Source of the DNA: Patescibacteria group bacterium
GTDB taxonomy: Bacteria > Patescibacteriota > Patescibacteriia > 2-01-FULL-39-33
Direction of reading: 5' to 3'
Length of the DNA stretch: 32,000 nt
Assembly (NCBI GenBank): GCA_041649575.1
Contig: JBAZMW010000001.1
Location: forward strand, 30,001 to 62,000
Within the stretch, counting starts at the first letter, position 1. Each line of letters opens with the position of its first letter. A program made the position numbers and the translations under genes. A model generated the notes under the pieces. It saw only the letters and a list, made by a program, of their open reading frames with translations, made no database searches and had not been told where the DNA came from. Shown here one piece after another: positions 7,605-13,485 of this stretch.

Positions 7605-8498
7605 ATGCAAAAAGTATTTCTAAGAATAGGTTTAGTAGCTGTGATTTTGGCCTTTTTAACTTTGCCGGCCAAGGCCTATTATGATTTGGGCCGGCCGGCG
7701 GGATATGTTAATGATTACGCCGGAGTTTTAAGCGCGGCCGACAAAACGGCGCTGGAAAACAAATTGACGCAGTTCGAAGCGGATTCTTCCAATGAGATTG
7801 CCATAGCGACAATCAAGTCGCTCCAAGGCGATACGATAGAGAATTTTGCGGTGAAGTTATTCGAGTCTTGGAAGATCGGCAAAGAAGACAAGGATAACGG
7901 CGTCTTAATTTTGGTGGCGGTAGAGGACAGAAAAATGCGGGTTGAAGTTGGCTATGGCCTGGAAGGAGCGCTGACCGACGCCCAAAGTTATTGGGTAATC
8001 AACAACGTCATGAAGCCGGCTTTCAGAGAAAGTAACTATTACGGAGGTCTTAATGGAGCCGTAGATAAAATAGTTGACGCCACCAAGGGCGAATATGTAC
8101 CCAGCGAAACTCCAAAAAATTCTGAAGAGGGGGGTTTGTTAAATATCGTTTTTGGCTTGATCTGGCCTTTCGCTTTTATTTTGATATTTTTAGCCAGTAT
8201 TTTGTCGAGGAGCAAATCGTGGTGGGCCGGAGGAATAATTGGCTTAGTTATAGGGGTGGTGGTCGGATTGTTCGTCGGTTTCATTTGGGGTGTGGTTGGC
8301 GTTTTGATCCTGACGCCCCTGGGCCTGTTGTTTGATTTTTTTGTTTCCAAACAATATCAAAAGGGCAAAGCTTCGGGACATTATCCCTGGTGGATTGGGG
8401 GGCGCGGCGGATTTGGCGGCGGCGGTAGCGGCGGCGGCGGTTTTGGCGGATTTGGCGGCGGCAGTTCGGGTGGTGGCGGAGCGAGCGGTGGGTGGTAA
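7605..8498 (+). CDS. TPM-domain (YgcG-like) membrane protein with a Gly-rich C-terminal tail (297 aa)
   Basis: ORF track. A signal peptide is followed by YVNDYAGVLS...SNEIAIATIKSLQGDTIENFAVKLFESWKIGKEDKDNGVLILVAVEDRKMRVEVGYGLEGALTD (TPM pattern), then C-terminal TM helices and a GGxGG tail. Pairing with LemA is common. Confidence 0.85.
   Translation: MQKVFLRIGLVAVILAFLTLPAKAYYDLGRPAGYVNDYAGVLSAADKTALENKLTQFEADSSNEIAIATIKSLQGDTIENFAVKLFESWKIGKEDKDNGVLILVAVEDRKMRVEVGYGLEGALTDAQSYWVINNVMKPAFRESNYYGGLNGAVDKIVDATKGEYVPSETPKNSEEGGLLNIVFGLIWPFAFILIFLASILSRSKSWWAGGIIGLVIGVVVGLFVGFIWGVVGVLILTPLGLLFDFFVSKQYQKGKASGHYPWWIGGRGGFGGGGSGGGGFGGFGGGSSGGGGASGGW
8397..8495 (+). repeat. GGC/GGT-rich low-complexity tract encoding the poly-Gly tail of the TPM protein
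   Basis: Encodes GGRGGFGGGGSGGGGFGGFGGGSSGGGGASGGW. The DNA is reiterated ggcgg units, which also create spurious ORFs in other frames. Confidence 0.7.
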
Positions 8499-8503
8499 AA
8501 AAT

Positions 8504-8899
8504 ATGGAAAACAAATACAAAGGCGTAATAATAGAAGAAAGCCTAGAAGACAAAACTGTTTTAGGAAGTGTCAGTATTTTGGATACGAAAATAGAAGAAG
8601 TAACTAAAAAACATAGAACTCCATGGGTTACTAAGTGGACTTTGCACACTGTAGAAATACCCGAGGATAGAGTTGAGATTATTACAGGACAAATCAGTGA
8701 ATCTTTAGATAAAAACCACGCCTGGTATGCCGATTTTAAAAATAGAGAGCATCATTACATTGTTTTCCGTGGTAAGGTTTTCTTTGTTGACCGATACAGT
8801 AAAGAACAATATGACGAGGCAAAGAAATATGGAATTTCATTGGGTATTCCGGAATATCAGGTTGATTTTCATCCAGAGGTGAAAGAGTGGGAGAGATAG
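8504..8899 (+). CDS. Hypothetical protein (131 aa)
   Basis: ORF track gives 8492..8899 from a GTG inside the TPM stop region. The ATG at 8504 (MENKYKGVIIEE...) lies 5 nt after the TPM stop. I recognised no family. Confidence 0.55.
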   Translation: MENKYKGVIIEESLEDKTVLGSVSILDTKIEEVTKKHRTPWVTKWTLHTVEIPEDRVEIITGQISESLDKNHAWYADFKNREHHYIVFRGKVFFVDRYSKEQYDEAKKYGISLGIPEYQVDFHPEVKEWER

Positions 8900-8933
8900 G
8901 GTTTACATAATTATTTAGATCAAATACTACGGA

Positions 8934-8963
8934 GACGCGTGCAAGCGCGTCCCTGTATTTTTT
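8934..8963 (+). terminator. Rho-independent terminator after the lemA-TPM-ORF131 unit
   Basis: Stem GACGCG (8934-8939) / CGCGTC (8946-8951) with a 6-nt loop, followed by a T6 run at 8958-8963. Confidence 0.55.
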
Positions 8964-8973
8964 GGCTGATTTT

Positions 8974-8982
8974 TGCTATAAT
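8974..8982 (+). promoter_or_regulatory. Extended -10 promoter TGCTATAAT for the GIY-YIG/FemAB/MFS/DUF1624/rsmA operon
   Basis: An exact TGnTATAAT lies immediately after the terminator and ~50 nt upstream of the ATG at 9032. Confidence 0.45.
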
Positions 8983-9031
8983 TTATCCTGTTAGACAAAA
9001 TTTTAAATTTTTTATTTGTCTTGCAATATGT

Positions 9032-9286
9032 ATGTATTATGTCTATATTTTGGAATCTATAAAAGATAAAAAATTCTATACTGGCTTTACTAAAAATTTA
9101 AAATTTAGATTTGAGCAACATCAAAAAGGATTGGTTGACTCTACTAAGAATAGGAAACCGTTTAAATTAATTTACTATGAGGCTTGTCTTAACCAGCAGG
9201 ATGCTACTAGGAGAGAAAAGTACCTAAAAACGATTTATGGCAAAAGATACCTCAAGAATCGGCTCGAATCTTATCTAACAGGATGA
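9032..9286 (+). CDS. Small stand-alone GIY-YIG nuclease family protein (84 aa)
   Basis: ORF track starts at 8939, but that extension runs through the terminator and promoter. The ATG at 9032 gives MYYVYILESIKDKKFYTGFTKNLKFRFEQHQKG...REKYLK, a GIY-YIG pattern (YVYIL...YTGFT...R...H). Confidence 0.8.
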   Translation: MYYVYILESIKDKKFYTGFTKNLKFRFEQHQKGLVDSTKNRKPFKLIYYEACLNQQDATRREKYLKTIYGKRYLKNRLESYLTG

Positions 9287-9290
9287 ATTA

Positions 9291-10415
9291 ATGAAAGTAA
9301 TTTTTGGAGAAAGCTTGGGTCAGGAAAAGTGGGACGAATTTATCAAAAATAATTCGTCTGATTTTGGTTTATTGCAATCAGCTGGTTGGGCTAAGTTTCA
9401 GAGAAGCTTGGGCCGGCAAGTTTTTCAGTTAGCAGCGGCCGATGAACAGCAAAATATTTTGGCCGTAGCATTAATAATTAAGCAGAAGCTACCACTAGGA
9501 AAAAGTTATTTTTATATTCCACGTGGGCCAGTTGTGGTTGTCATTGCGAGCGAAGCGAAGCAATCCCAAGTAATAATGGATAACACGGGATCGCCACCTG
9601 TCTCGCATGCCTTTGGCAAAGCCTTCGGCGACGCCAGGCCGAGCCTAGGCGGACGGTCGCTATCGCTTCCTCGCGATGACATTTTGAGTAGTTTGTTTTC
9701 TGAAATTGAGAATTTGGCTAAAAAAGAAAAAGCGATTTTTTTAAGATTGGATCCGGCCTGGGAAAACAGCGAGGCCAGTCTGAATTATTTTAAAAAGCAA
9801 AAATTAAAATTTTCCGGACAGGTTCAGCCAAAACAAACACTAATTTTAGACTTAACCAAATCAGAAGAAGAATTATTGGCGCAAATGAAACCAAAAACCC
9901 GCTATAATATCAAAGTGGCGCAAAAGCATTGTTTAAAAATTGACGAAGGTGAGCATTATTTTGAAAATTTTTGGCAATTAATGAAAAAAACTGCCAAACG
10001 CGACAACTTTTCGACTCATAGCAGAGAGTATTACTATAAAATGGTCGAAAACCTAGCGTCGGATAAAGTTGTCAGACTAGTGGTGGCCAAAGACGGCGAC
10101 AGAGTTATCGCCGCTAATCTAATGGTAGCTTTCGGCTACTGGTGCGTTTATTTGCACGGCGCTTCCGATTATGGCTCTCGGGAAAAAATGGCGCCCTATT
10201 TGTTGCAGTGGGAGGCGATTTTATCGGCCAAAGCCAAAAACAAAAAATATTATGATTTTTGGGGCGTGGACGAAGACAGCTGGCCGGGGGTGACGCGGTT
10301 TAAGACCGGTTTTGCTCTTAAACAGGGTTTCACCCAATATGTTGGCAGCTGGGATTTAGTGTATAATAAAAGGTGGTATGGTCTATACCGGGCTCTGAAA
10401 AAAATAAAAAGCTAG
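9291..10415 (+). CDS. FemAB-family peptidoglycan interpeptide-bridge aminoacyltransferase (FemX/MurM-like), carrying a 47-codon insertion
   Basis: ORF track. Contains LLQSAGWAKFQ, YFYIPRGPV, FLRLDP, MKPKTRYNIKVAQK, YLHGASD...MAPYLLQWEAI and YDFWGV...GVTRFKTGF, typical of FemAB/MurM-type enzymes. Confidence 0.8.
   Translation: MKVIFGESLGQEKWDEFIKNNSSDFGLLQSAGWAKFQRSLGRQVFQLAAADEQQNILAVALIIKQKLPLGKSYFYIPRGPVVVVIASEAKQSQVIMDNTGSPPVSHAFGKAFGDARPSLGGRSLSLPRDDILSSLFSEIENLAKKEKAIFLRLDPAWENSEASLNYFKKQKLKFSGQVQPKQTLILDLTKSEEELLAQMKPKTRYNIKVAQKHCLKIDEGEHYFENFWQLMKKTAKRDNFSTHSREYYYKMVENLASDKVVRLVVAKDGDRVIAANLMVAFGYWCVYLHGASDYGSREKMAPYLLQWEAILSAKAKNKKYYDFWGVDEDSWPGVTRFKTGFALKQGFTQYVGSWDLVYNKRWYGLYRALKKIKS
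9540..9680 (+). repeat. 141-bp palindromic insertion (MITE/RPE-like) lying exactly in-frame within the FemAB gene
   Basis: Terminal inverted repeats: GTCATTGCGAGCGAAGCGAAGCAATCC (left) against the reverse complement of the right end, GTCATCGCGAGGAAGCGATAGCGACC (~26 nt, a few mismatches, one 1-nt indel). It begins on a codon boundary and is 47 codons long. It encodes VIASEAKQSQVIMDNTGSPPVSHAFGKAFGDARPSLGGRSLSLPRDD between conserved ...IPRGPVV and ILSSLF.... Confidence 0.55.
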
Positions 10416-10421
10416 ACTTTT

Positions 10422-11612
10422 ATGGCCGATAAAATTAGAGATTTAATTTTATCTTGTTTCCCCCGCCAGCTTAACCGGCAGATCAAGGAGTTGTATCTTT
10501 CTTCGATAATTTTGGTCTTCGCCGAGTCGATGGTTATCATCTTCGAGCCGGTTTTTTTGTACACTATTTTTTTTAAGTCCCACGGATTTAAAGGCTCGTT
10601 GCAACTCTTGTTGTGTTTTTATCTGGTGATTTATCTGCTTTATTTCGCCGTCTTGCCTTTGGGGGCTCGTTTTGCCAAGCGTTTTGGCTACGAATCTTCC
10701 ATTGCTTTGGGAGTTTTTTTTACGGCGTTGCTTTACGGCAGCTTGTTTATGATCAGTAAATTTTTCTGGCCCTTTACAGTTCTGACCATAATTTTTTATG
10801 TTTTGGCTAAAATGTTTTATTGGCCGGCCTATCACGCCAATTTTGCCCGCTTTTCGGCTTCGGGCCAACGCGGTCGACAAATTAGCAATTTGGCCATTTT
10901 GGAAACCATAGTTTGCATCGTCGGTCCGCTACTGGGCGGCTTGATTCTGAAATTTTTCGGCTTTGAGTTTTTGTTTATTATCGCCTGCGCCTTGATAATT
11001 ATTTCCAACATTCCCCTACTTATCACCAGGGAACAATTCGAGCCGAAACCTTTCGAGTATTTTAAAGTCTATAAAGATTTATTTTCTCGGGAAAGAAGAA
11101 AAAAGTTTTTTTCCCTGTGGGGCTATGGCGAAGAATTCATCACCATGGTCGTTTGGCCAGTGTTTATTTTCACAGTGGTTAAAGATTTCTTAGGCTTGGG
11201 CGCTTTGACGGCTTTTTCTTTGTTTTTAACCACCATTGTCTTTTTATTCATCGGCAGAATCACCGATCGACAAGAAGGCCGGCTAGTTATGCGCTACGGC
11301 ACAATTTTCTATTCTTTTAGCTGGCTGTTGCGCCTGATCTCTCGGGGTGTTTTGGGAGTTTTTTTAATTGACAGCTATTCCCGATTGGCCAAGCAATCAA
11401 TCTCAGTGCCCACGGTGGCCTTGACTTATTCCAAGGCGACACGAAAAGATTCGTCGGTGATGGGGACAATAGTTTTTTTTGAGATGTCTCTGGTGGTTGG
11501 CAAAATCGTTACCATGTTGGCGGCCTTAGTCTTGTTGCAAATCTTTACTCCAGGCTGGAACTCGATGTTTATTCTGGCCGGACTGATGACTTTACTTTAT
11601 TTACTTTTTTAA
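10422..11612 (+). CDS. Polytopic membrane transporter, probably MFS (396 aa)
   Basis: ORF track. About 12 hydrophobic helices by eye, with an RFGYE-type loop after TM2 that resembles MFS motif A. Confidence 0.55.
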   Translation: MADKIRDLILSCFPRQLNRQIKELYLSSIILVFAESMVIIFEPVFLYTIFFKSHGFKGSLQLLLCFYLVIYLLYFAVLPLGARFAKRFGYESSIALGVFFTALLYGSLFMISKFFWPFTVLTIIFYVLAKMFYWPAYHANFARFSASGQRGRQISNLAILETIVCIVGPLLGGLILKFFGFEFLFIIACALIIISNIPLLITREQFEPKPFEYFKVYKDLFSRERRKKFFSLWGYGEEFITMVVWPVFIFTVVKDFLGLGALTAFSLFLTTIVFLFIGRITDRQEGRLVMRYGTIFYSFSWLLRLISRGVLGVFLIDSYSRLAKQSISVPTVALTYSKATRKDSSVMGTIVFFEMSLVVGKIVTMLAALVLLQIFTPGWNSMFILAGLMTLLYLLF

Positions 11613-11615
11613 TTT

Positions 11616-12668
11616 ATGAAAAGATTGGATTTTTTGGATTATTGGCGCGGTTGGGCGATAGTGCTGATGGTTTTCAATCATACGGCTCGCTGGTGGCTTG
11701 AATCAGCGACGCTGGGAGCCCTTCAGGAACGGGTGGTTTATTTTACAGTGACTCTGGCAGCGCCATTTTTTTTGTTTTTAGTCGGTTTTTCTTTGGCCTT
11801 ATCTTTTTTTAGAGCCAGAGAGGCAAAACGGCTGCCGTCGGCAAAAATTGTGGTCAAATATTTAAAAAGAGGTTTATTTATCATTATTTTGGGCTATGTT
11901 TTTAATTTTTTAATTTTGACCAGCCAAAATTCGATTCTGCGTGGCCAGGTTTTGCAAGCGATAGGCTCGACCATTATTCTGGCCATACCTTTTTTATTTT
12001 TGAGCCAGAAAAAATTTTTTCAGTTTGTTTTTTTGGCGCTGGCCTTGGCCATTGTCTTTTTTGGGCCGATAGCCTTTAGTCTCTCGGTCTCGGCGCCACT
12101 ACTGGAAAAAATAAATTGGTTTTTTACAGCCTTCCCCCTGATTCCTTGGTTTGGTTTTGCGCTGCTGGGCCTGGTTTTGGGCCGTATTTTTTTGGAGCTT
12201 CGAGATAATCAAAAAAAACTGGCCTGGTTTTTTGGTGTTCTGGGTTTTTTGGGAGTAATTGGTTTGGCCATAGCGTTTGTCGGTAAAGAATTATTTTTGG
12301 ATGGTTACTTTTTCGCTTTCGGCCATGATTTTGTCGTCAACGCCTGGTGGGCACCAAAGGGATTGACGGTCTTTTGGGTTTTGGGAATGATTTTTATATT
12401 CTTGGTCGGGTGTTATTTTTTGGATCAATTCGGGAAATGGCGAATAACTTGGCTGAAAAATTTAGGCCAGACGGCTTTAATGATTTATTTTGCGCATCAT
12501 TTGATCGGTTTGGATTTATTAAGCTACGTTTTTAATTTTAAACTGGCAACACCCGTTGGTTATTTTTGCGCCAGTCTGGTTTTTTTGGTGATACTGGTAT
12601 TCTCAAGCGGGTGTTGGCTTGAACTAATTAATTATCTTAAAAAAAAGTTTGACTATCGCCGAAGCTAA
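11616..12668 (+). CDS. DUF1624 / heparan-alpha-glucosaminide N-acetyltransferase-like membrane acyltransferase family protein (350 aa)
   Basis: ORF track. The N-terminus MKRLDFLDYWRGWAIVLMVFNHTARWW matches the R..lD..RG.a...M...H signature of this family. The protein is polytopic. Confidence 0.6.
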   Translation: MKRLDFLDYWRGWAIVLMVFNHTARWWLESATLGALQERVVYFTVTLAAPFFLFLVGFSLALSFFRAREAKRLPSAKIVVKYLKRGLFIIILGYVFNFLILTSQNSILRGQVLQAIGSTIILAIPFLFLSQKKFFQFVFLALALAIVFFGPIAFSLSVSAPLLEKINWFFTAFPLIPWFGFALLGLVLGRIFLELRDNQKKLAWFFGVLGFLGVIGLAIAFVGKELFLDGYFFAFGHDFVVNAWWAPKGLTVFWVLGMIFIFLVGCYFLDQFGKWRITWLKNLGQTALMIYFAHHLIGLDLLSYVFNFKLATPVGYFCASLVFLVILVFSSGCWLELINYLKKKFDYRRS

Positions 12669-13485
12669 ATCAATCAGCGCCAGAATCGGCTTGTCTCCCA
12701 GCAGAGCCAAAGGCCAAAATTTTTTGGTCGACCAAAATATTATCGACAGGATAATTAAGTCGGCCGATCTTGGCAAAGCCGAGACGGTTTTGGAGGTTGG
12801 GCCGGGTTTTGGCGTTTTGACCAGAGAGCTGGTCAAAGAGGCGGGCCAGGTGGTGGCGGTGGAACTGGACAAAAAACTTTTTGATTTTTTGCAGAAAGAA
12901 TTGGGGCAAAATAAAAATTTAAAACTGCTTAACGCCGATATTTTGAAAAACGATCCAGGGGCAATGGGTTTGTCGGCGTTTGGCTATCGGGTGGTGGCCA
13001 ACCTGCCTTACAATATCACTTCCTTTTTTTTGCGGCGATTTTTGGAAAGCCCGACCAAGCCCCGTGAAATGATGCTAATGGTGCAAAAAGAAGTGGCTCA
13101 AAGGCTTATGGCCAAACCAGGGAAAAACAATTTACTTTCTCTCTCGGTGCAATTCTATGGCGAGAGTCAAATTTTATTTGAAGTCAAAAAAGAATCTTTT
13201 TGGCCCGAGCCGCAAGTGGATTCGGCAGTGATTAAAATAAAATTAAAAAAAGATTTGCCAGAAATTGACGCCAAATATTTTTTCAGGGTTTTGAGGGTCG
13301 GTTTTTCGGCCAAAAGGAAGCAGTTACAGAACAATTTAGCGGCCGGTTTTTGTCTAAAAAACTCTAAAATTAGAGAAATTTTGGCTGCTATTGGGTTGGA
13401 AGAAAAAATCAGGGCGCAGGAGCTCGCTTTAGACAAGTGGCTCAATTTGGCTAACCAATTAAAAGATCAGATTTTGCTGAAATAA
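12649..13485 (+). CDS. rsmA: 16S rRNA (adenine1518/1519-N6)-dimethyltransferase RsmA/KsgA
   Basis: ORF track. A TTG start overlaps the upstream gene by 20 nt. Motifs: GQNFLVD, VLEVGPGFGVLT (SAM site), VVANLPYNITS and FWPEPQVDSAVIKI. Confidence 0.9.
   Translation: MTIAEAKSISARIGLSPSRAKGQNFLVDQNIIDRIIKSADLGKAETVLEVGPGFGVLTRELVKEAGQVVAVELDKKLFDFLQKELGQNKNLKLLNADILKNDPGAMGLSAFGYRVVANLPYNITSFFLRRFLESPTKPREMMLMVQKEVAQRLMAKPGKNNLLSLSVQFYGESQILFEVKKESFWPEPQVDSAVIKIKLKKDLPEIDAKYFFRVLRVGFSAKRKQLQNNLAAGFCLKNSKIREILAAIGLEEKIRAQELALDKWLNLANQLKDQILLK

Follow-up and report, generated by a model that had tools for sequence, protein, structure and literature searches.

The femAB locus and its insert

This study concerns a palindromic segment of 141 nt that lies in frame within the femAB gene of a bacterium of the Patescibacteria group (GenBank assembly GCA_041649575.1). 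The gene is located in a window of 32,000 nucleotides, which is the whole stretch of DNA analysed (contig JBAZMW010000001.1, positions 30,001 to 62,000 of the forward strand); window positions are counted from its first letter, and other positions in the genome (G000) are given by contig, C1 being the contig that carries the window. The genome is 920 kb in size, consists of 5 contigs and is 98% complete. The FemAB domain of the encoded protein is recognised by Pfam with E = 7e-48, the protein keeps 36 of the 36 invariant columns of the homologue alignment, and its closest homologues carry the source names Patescibacteria, Falkowbacteria or Buchananbacteria. The features of the locus are the following:

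9291..10415, + strand: FemAB host gene, intact open reading frame, aminoacyl-tRNA-dependent peptidoglycan bridge transferase family, 374 aa
9540..9680, + strand: palindromic insert, composite and in frame; dimer of two hairpin units arranged head to head; 141 nt = 47 codons, residues 84-130
9540..9567, + strand: unit A, 28 nt; its TGTC tag includes T9539; body ATTGCGAG...GCAATCCC; encodes VIASEAKQS
9568..9586, no strand assigned: AT-rich spacer between the units, 19 nt, ~26% GC, encodes QVIMDNT
9587..9680, - strand: unit B, in inverted orientation; a 61-nt unit of the canonical type with a further piece nested in it; the outer end, ...CTCGCGATGAC, encodes ...SLPRDD
9607..9639, no strand assigned: nested mini-hairpin in mid unit B, 33 nt = 11 codons; boundaries uncertain by 1-2 nt

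The insert starts on a codon boundary (9540-9291 = 249 = 83 codons), adds 47 codons and contains zero stops, and only one of the three frames of its + strand is open, which is the one in use. Its GC content is 0.589, versus 0.397 for the remainder of the gene. The frame, the length and the higher GC content had already been pointed out in a preliminary description of the locus and were borne out here. The imperfect terminal inverted repeats mentioned in that description (~26 nt) do exist: the outermost arms (TGTCATTGCGAG and CTCGCGATGACA) measure 12 nt with 92% complementarity, and ~21-22 terminal bases are paired when the 141-nt insert is folded. The FemAB sequence is interrupted as had been stated, except that the preceding residues are PRGPVVV and not PRGPVV.

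The insert folds significantly better than shuffled sequences. As RNA it reaches -65.3 kcal/mol (z = -5.0 for the + strand and z = -4.7 for the - strand) and as DNA -34.8 kcal/mol (z = -4.1), the null being 200 dinucleotide shuffles, of which 0 fold as well as the insert. Folded singly, the units give z values of -0.55 and -1.24, which are not significant, so that the folding signal arises from the pairing of the two inverted units.

Anatomy of the composite

Unit A, with its conserved head GTCATTGCGAG and its tail GCAATCCC, is 100% identical over 29 nt to C2:19565-19593, which lies on another contig and in frame in a glycosyltransferase gene, and shares 26 of 28 nucleotides with C2:91894-91921, the right flank of a cassette encoding a GIY-YIG nuclease (see below). 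Unit B matches C1:11868-11910, the left flank of a second GIY-YIG cassette situated on the same contig at a distance of 27.7 kb, with 98% identity over its outer 43 nt. The 33-nt piece nested in unit B is missing, according to the alignment, from 5 of the 5 canonical 60-61-nt B units of the genome, and a 32-nt copy of it with 97% identity is found at C3:173138-173169, within another palindrome. The length of the insert is accounted for by these parts (28 + 19 + 61 + 33 = 141). The final spacer bases, CAC, are part of the unit B tail CCCGTG; the 19-nt spacer may consist of leftover native loop codons or be a dimer spacer, and the spacers in other dimers of the genome measure 2, 2, 2, 2, 14 and 19 nt.

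The mini-hairpin (CCTTTGGCAAAGCC... core) occurs nested in two different larger palindromes (C3:173138-173169 and window 9607-9639). This suggests that it is a separate small family, inserting into the loops of other hairpin repeats.

Evidence for an insertion and structure of the protein

The FemAB protein was compared with 27 orthologues from 40 related genomes and with 31 database homologues, all of which were aligned. The PRGP motif is separated from the following helix by 5-14 residues in nearly all of the aligned homologues, and the distance from PRGP to FLRLDP, with a median of 31 aa (106 homologues), is 70 aa in the window protein. The 141-nt segment is missing from about 100 FemAB homologues, orthologues included.

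The AlphaFold2 model of the protein has a mean predicted local distance difference test score (pLDDT) of 89.4 and a predicted template modelling score of 0.86. Residues 88-124 have a pLDDT below 50 and zero secondary structure, and the loop to which they belong is located after beta-sheet 1, whose final strand ends at ~residue 81, and before a helix formed by residues 129-145. The best structural match is FemX of Weissella viridescens (335 aa; E = 5e-24, target-normalised template modelling score 0.83). In this model, the FemX-like fold is complete, and the 47 extra residues add a disordered loop to it.

A family of hairpins in the genome and beyond

A pattern search detected 30 units of the ATTGCGAG...GCAATCCC hairpin family in the genome. 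Seventeen of the 30 lie inside genes, in frame and stop-free, and are distributed over 12 genes; the other units are located tightly between genes. The interrupted genes encode a class I methyltransferase, FemAB, cysteinyl-tRNA synthetase (CysRS), Dus, UvrA, two GT4 glycosyltransferases, PheT, WecG/TagA, Tgt, the CCA-adding enzyme and DNA polymerase I, the identity of the host genes being based on Pfam for ten of them and FemAB, and on NCBIfam for PolA. A genic match in the triose-phosphate isomerase gene (GHSERR) was rejected, as it is native sequence and contains no unit.

The units have a common architecture, namely a TGTC tag, a 5-bp closing stem ATTGC...GCAAT and a CCC tail, with an interior of 12 to ~80 nt that contains variable inner stems. 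Most of the 30 units occur in inverted pairs with their tags outward. A T precedes 11 of 12 elements and an A follows 12 of 12, so that the outer ends read TGTC; in the window, the junctions are T9539-GTCAT...ATGAC-A9681. Frame 2 of the unit strand is open in 28 of the 30 units and frame 2 of the reverse strand in 26, and reverse frames 1 and 3 contain stops in about half of them: the family is biased towards open frames, without any guarantee of them.

The unit pattern also has exact matches in 23 of 41 related genomes (reversed control: 0) and in many phyla. The peptides that the preliminary description had mentioned as recurring in metagenomic proteins were indeed retrieved: IASEAKQS is encoded in a glycosyltransferase of the same genome, and SLRGA...DCFASLAMT is present in two FemAB homologues (P0003 and P0007).

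Repeated insertions in the FemAB post-PRGP loop

The loop that follows PRGP carries repeat-derived peptides in other FemAB homologues as well. Indeed (i) the SLRGA...DCFASLAMT peptide of P0003 and P0007 is located in this loop, (ii) VIPAKAGIQ-type peptides are found there in P0013, P0023 and P0070, (iii) further repeat-derived peptides are found there in P0047, P0058, P0008 and P0005, and (iv) P0050 has a 48-aa VIPS...LPRND insert at the position of the window insert. On a FemAB tree built without the loop columns, 7 changes are needed to explain the loop expansions, of which at least 4 are imposed by branches with good support. At the DNA level, P0003 has a head-to-head dimer of the GTCATTGCGAG family in its post-PRGP loop, in another codon phase and starting two codons earlier than the window insert, which indicates that the two events were independent.

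Low-complexity insertions were also observed in P0008, P0009, P0019, P0050 and P0058, at alignment columns 85-100, 300-325 and 385-430; for example, P0019 has an insert of ~50 aa that is acidic and rich in Ser and Glu, and P0050 has a second one. Since these lie at three further positions of FemAB, repeat accretion is not confined to the post-PRGP loop.

GIY-YIG nuclease cassettes

Six small GIY-YIG genes are encoded in the genome, two of which are bracketed by inverted units of the hairpin family:

C1:11868-12294: GIY-YIG cassette, gene at 11955-12254, 99 aa, inverted units on both sides
C2:91550-91921: GIY-YIG cassette, gene at 91603-91893, 96 aa, inverted units on both sides

In the cassette proteins, the GIY-YIG fold is the only one detected, with weak matches in PDB to UPF0213 proteins and no NCBIfam model. 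A Y1/RAYT transposase was looked for in the genome and not found. The bracketed layout is present in 5 of 30 GIY-YIG loci from relatives and, among 80 multi-phylum loci with an exact match to the unit pattern, also in loci of Bacillota, Planctomycetota and Pseudomonadota. In three loci of relatives (L067, L081 and L089), the bracketing hairpins are of the ATTCCCGC-GAAA-GCGGGAAT type, and the bracketed proteins share 47-60% identity with the two cassette proteins of the window genome (E 1e-25 to 1e-37). These three proteins group in a single clade, from which the seven proteins bracketed by ATTGC-type hairpins are excluded (support 82/95; small sample).

A methyltransferase gene starts 4 nt past the GIY-YIG cassette of contig C1 (C1:11868-12718, ~17 kb before the window start) and has an in-frame hairpin dimer ~300 nt into the gene. 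The near-identical inverted copies at 11868 (61 nt) and 12659-12718 (60 nt) thereby enclose the cassette along with the first (5') third of this gene. The window shows the same geometry, i.e. a GIY-YIG gene, the start of the next gene and an in-frame dimer 250-420 nt downstream, which hints at local hopping.

In the window, a GIY-YIG gene (9032-9286, 84 aa) lies directly upstream of femAB and has its own 24-nt imperfect inverted repeats. Their arms (8979-9002 and 9267-9290) are AT-rich and 88% complementary, and the last base of the right arm immediately precedes the femAB ATG. The arms are unrelated to the hairpin units and have no second copy in the genome. This gene was considered as the cognate nuclease of the units and rejected, being a long-branch outlier (34-44% identity to the bracketed nucleases) with unrelated single-copy repeats of its own; possibly it represents a distinct minimal GIY-YIG element, inserted at a start codon. 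Further upstream, a TPM-domain protein (7605-8498) has a transmembrane stretch towards its C-terminus and, after it, a long tail rich in Gly and Ser (GGGSGGGGFGGFGGG...).

Comparison with known systems

Rickettsia palindromic elements (RPEs), reportedly introduced by Ogata et al. in 2000, resemble the units in being dispersed palindromes that lie in frame in conserved housekeeping genes of a small-genome bacterium, and also between genes, where those within genes are tolerated as extra peptide segments; RPE-4 and RPE-6 have a terminal CGTC tag of the same kind. In the genome studied here, in-frame palindromes occur in 12 conserved genes, and the FemAB insert occupies a site compatible with the fold, in a disordered loop. 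The units differ from RPEs by the phylum, by the unit sequence (ATTGC...GCAAT with a long variable interior) and by the nested three-module composite, the link in sequence being the tag class shared with RPE-4 and RPE-6 (PMC3733652).

The superfamily of repetitive extragenic palindromes (REPs) with an unpaired terminal CGTC tag, which is often TGTC and may also be CCTC, is characterised by a stem that starts with A-T, short tails and a predominance of head-to-head dimers (Di Nocera, De Gregorio, Rocco 2013, PMC3733652). It includes dRS3 of Neisseria as well as RPE-4 and RPE-6, has intragenic members, in particular in repair genes such as uvrA and polA, and has no known dedicated transposase; its published families have stems of 8-9 bp and loops of 4-5 nt and come from 5 phyla, Patescibacteria not being among them (PMC3733652). 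The units of the window genome share with it the unpaired TGTC tag at one end, the A-T stem start, the short C-rich tail, the head-to-head dimers, the dispersal in multiple copies and the intragenic location in uvrA and polA. However, with their 5-bp closing stem and interiors of 12 to ~80 nt, they fall outside the 8-9-bp stems and 4-5-nt loops of the published families.

NTS hairpins, and more broadly SRM hairpins, flank small single-domain GIY-YIG genes (ssnA, cd10448) (Chenal et al. 2025, PMC11893778). SsnA binds the hairpin exclusively in the form of single-stranded DNA, which it cleaves a few bases upstream of the tag; NTS and SsnA modulate transformation in Neisseria, and 2% of NTS are intragenic in N. 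meningitidis (PMC11893778). The NTS-ssnA-NTS arrangement was likened to an insertion sequence, mobilisation being raised by the authors as a hypothesis, and Patescibacteria and in-frame copies go unmentioned (PMC11893778). The window genome has the same succession of a hairpin, a gene for a GIY-YIG protein of ~95 aa and an inverted hairpin; the GTCAT tag is common to both systems, and the hairpin type tracks the protein clade (in a small sample). In contrast, 57% of the units of the window genome are intragenic. When the search sequence published for SRM (PMC11893778) was turned into a pattern, it matched the hairpins of L067, L081 and L089, the hairpin of L081 being the exact NTS consensus. 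The 47-60% identity of the cassette nucleases of the window genome to the proteins bracketed by NTS/SRM hairpins in these relatives is indirect evidence that they are putative SsnA homologues (cd10448).

REP/REPIN sequences associated with RAYT genes (REPtrons) are also short hairpins, often in inverted dimers, that bracket the gene of a small hairpin-recognising nuclease acting on single-stranded DNA and that have dispersed gene-less copies, but they have a GTAG tag and an HUH/Y1 fold, compared with TGTC and GIY-YIG in the window genome. Classical miniature inverted-repeat transposable elements (MITEs) are recognised by terminal inverted repeats and a target-site duplication: inverted ends are present here, flanking direct repeats were found for 0 of 12 elements, and the gene-bearing form of the element encodes a GIY-YIG nuclease and not a DDE transposase. 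A literature search for the terminus sequence retrieved unrelated primers only, and searches for GIY-YIG with MITE or REP, or for RPE with the candidate phyla radiation (CPR), retrieved nothing relevant. The element belongs to a repeat class already described, as a diverged subtype that occurs in a new group of hosts and lies inside genes far more often (57% of units); the association of GIY-YIG genes with hairpins was already published, and no new mechanism is revealed.

Origin of the insert

Very probably, the 141-nt segment is selfish hairpin DNA that has built up by accretion; it would be tolerated because it keeps the frame and lies in a permissive loop, and its translation would yield a disordered loop. 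According to this reading, a head-to-head dimer of GC-rich hairpin units would have entered the DNA of a FemAB surface loop, and the 33-nt mini-hairpin would have become nested in one of the units. The insert would have survived because none of the steps shifted the reading frame or introduced a stop codon; it would be transcribed and translated with femAB as a 47-residue disordered loop, with the FemX-like fold intact, and is presumably neutral for the enzyme. The preliminary description had proposed an RPE-like selfish element, a proposal now supported: the two outcomes that would have spoken against it did not occur, since further copies exist, orthologues are without the segment and the folding is significant relative to shuffled sequences. 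In addition, the units carry the tag and the head-to-head layout of the superfamily that holds RPE-4 and RPE-6.

In this reading, the units are the gene-less form of the two GIY-YIG cassettes of the genome. Since the layout of these cassettes matches NTS-ssnA-NTS, spread would most likely take place via single-stranded DNA, and the route could involve single-stranded intermediates of replication, repair or uptake, with an Ssn-like nuclease acting in trans. Such mobilisation of the units is plausible, with the chances for and against it about evenly balanced.

Several points weigh against selfish accretion of this kind: (i) the insertion and the translation of the insert are both inferred, the former from protein alignments, because there is no nucleotide-level empty site from a close relative and no same-genus genome; (ii) empty-site and filled-junction patterns alike had no match in metagenome contigs, a result of little weight because sequences of this genome may be concealed among them; (iii) single units, as DNA, fold weakly; (iv) target-site duplications were looked for around the 12 elements and none was seen; (v) the SRM pattern has 3 matches in the window genome, versus a mean of 3.7 in shuffled sequence, NTS has 0, and units A and B are not matched; and (vi) to our knowledge, GIY-YIG nucleases form no covalent intermediate, and neither strand transfer nor DNA joining is known for them.

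A more far-reaching version would be that GTCATTGCGAG-type hairpins and GIY-YIG proteins of 96-99 aa constitute an active mobile system of single-stranded DNA in Patescibacteria, with the loops of essential genes as safe havens and a preference for nearby hops. Of the six small GIY-YIG genes in this genome, two have an in-frame dimer in the gene that follows, 250-420 nt downstream. This version is considered unlikely; if it were true, the post-PRGP loop of FemAB would be a genuine hot spot for insertion, beyond a site that simply tolerates inserts.

Co-option of the hairpins was considered as an alternative to selfish accretion: they could serve as nuclease sites modulating recombination or uptake, as mRNA structures tuning translation, or as a functional FemAB loop. 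The role of NTS and SsnA in Neisseria transformation (PMC11893778), the strong folding of the element and the intragenic share of the units (57%, against 2% of NTS in N. meningitidis) would be in line with such functions. However, the ~90% coding density of this tiny genome could alone explain many intragenic survivors, the insert sequence is unconserved among FemAB homologues, in which lineages differ in repeat family or have none, the peptide is predicted to be disordered, and the composite resembles a stepwise accretion of selfish modules. Co-option appears quite improbable, and for domestication inside the enzyme gene, as envisaged in the preliminary description, nothing was found in favour, the insert being a disordered loop built from selfish modules.

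It could also be supposed that the segment is untranslated, either removed from the mRNA like an intron or bypassed by the ribosome. The insert is a strong compact hairpin within a coding region, and the GC-rich palindromic 'byp' elements of some yeast mitochondria are bypassed by the ribosome. Removal or bypass would nevertheless free the length and the stop content of the segment, whereas the insert is exactly 47 codons long and open in a single usable frame, the nested piece measures 33 nt, and 12 of the 12 interrupted genes are open across their inserts, in frame, as expected of translated inserts. Moreover, an Rfam search over window positions 8800-10500 (E up to 10) returned nothing relevant and no ribozyme-size structure was found. 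Such a fate of the segment is very improbable, and the RNA-level structured element suggested as another possibility in the preliminary description finds no support in the same findings, i.e. no Rfam match and the frame kept in 12 of 12 genes.

The possibility that the 47 residues are an ancestral, lineage-specific FemAB loop with incidental palindromy is more remote still. The length of the post-PRGP loop does vary among homologues, and an origin shared with the 48-aa insert of P0050 is possible, that part of the tree being poorly resolved; but copies of both halves of the insert, with 98-100% identity, are present at other places of the genome, within unrelated genes as well as in intergenic positions, the GC content jumps from 0.40 to 0.59, and the nearest homologues are without the segment. 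Finally, although assemblers can be misled by short repeats, an assembly artefact, in which a repeat was collapsed or chimerically joined into the gene, can practically be dismissed, as a separate contig of an ENA metagenome encodes the identical protein of 374 aa, the frame is exactly preserved, and similar inserts are found in the same loop of homologues from independent assemblies.

Implications

The interpretation as accreted selfish DNA would mean that in-frame selfish DNA in proteins, known from Rickettsia, exists on a large scale in the ultra-small genomes of the CPR too. The 12 affected genes are housekeeping genes and include those of DNA polymerase I, UvrA, two tRNA synthetases and cell-wall enzymes. 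For annotation, VIASEAKQS, SLRGA... and ...LAMT peptides in metagenomic proteins would be read as repeat-derived, and alignments of CPR protein families as well as structure prediction must allow for such inserts. As regards the Ssn field, the genome provides a hairpin subtype that is missed by the published SRM pattern, together with putative cognate small nucleases that are testable for new single-stranded DNA specificities.

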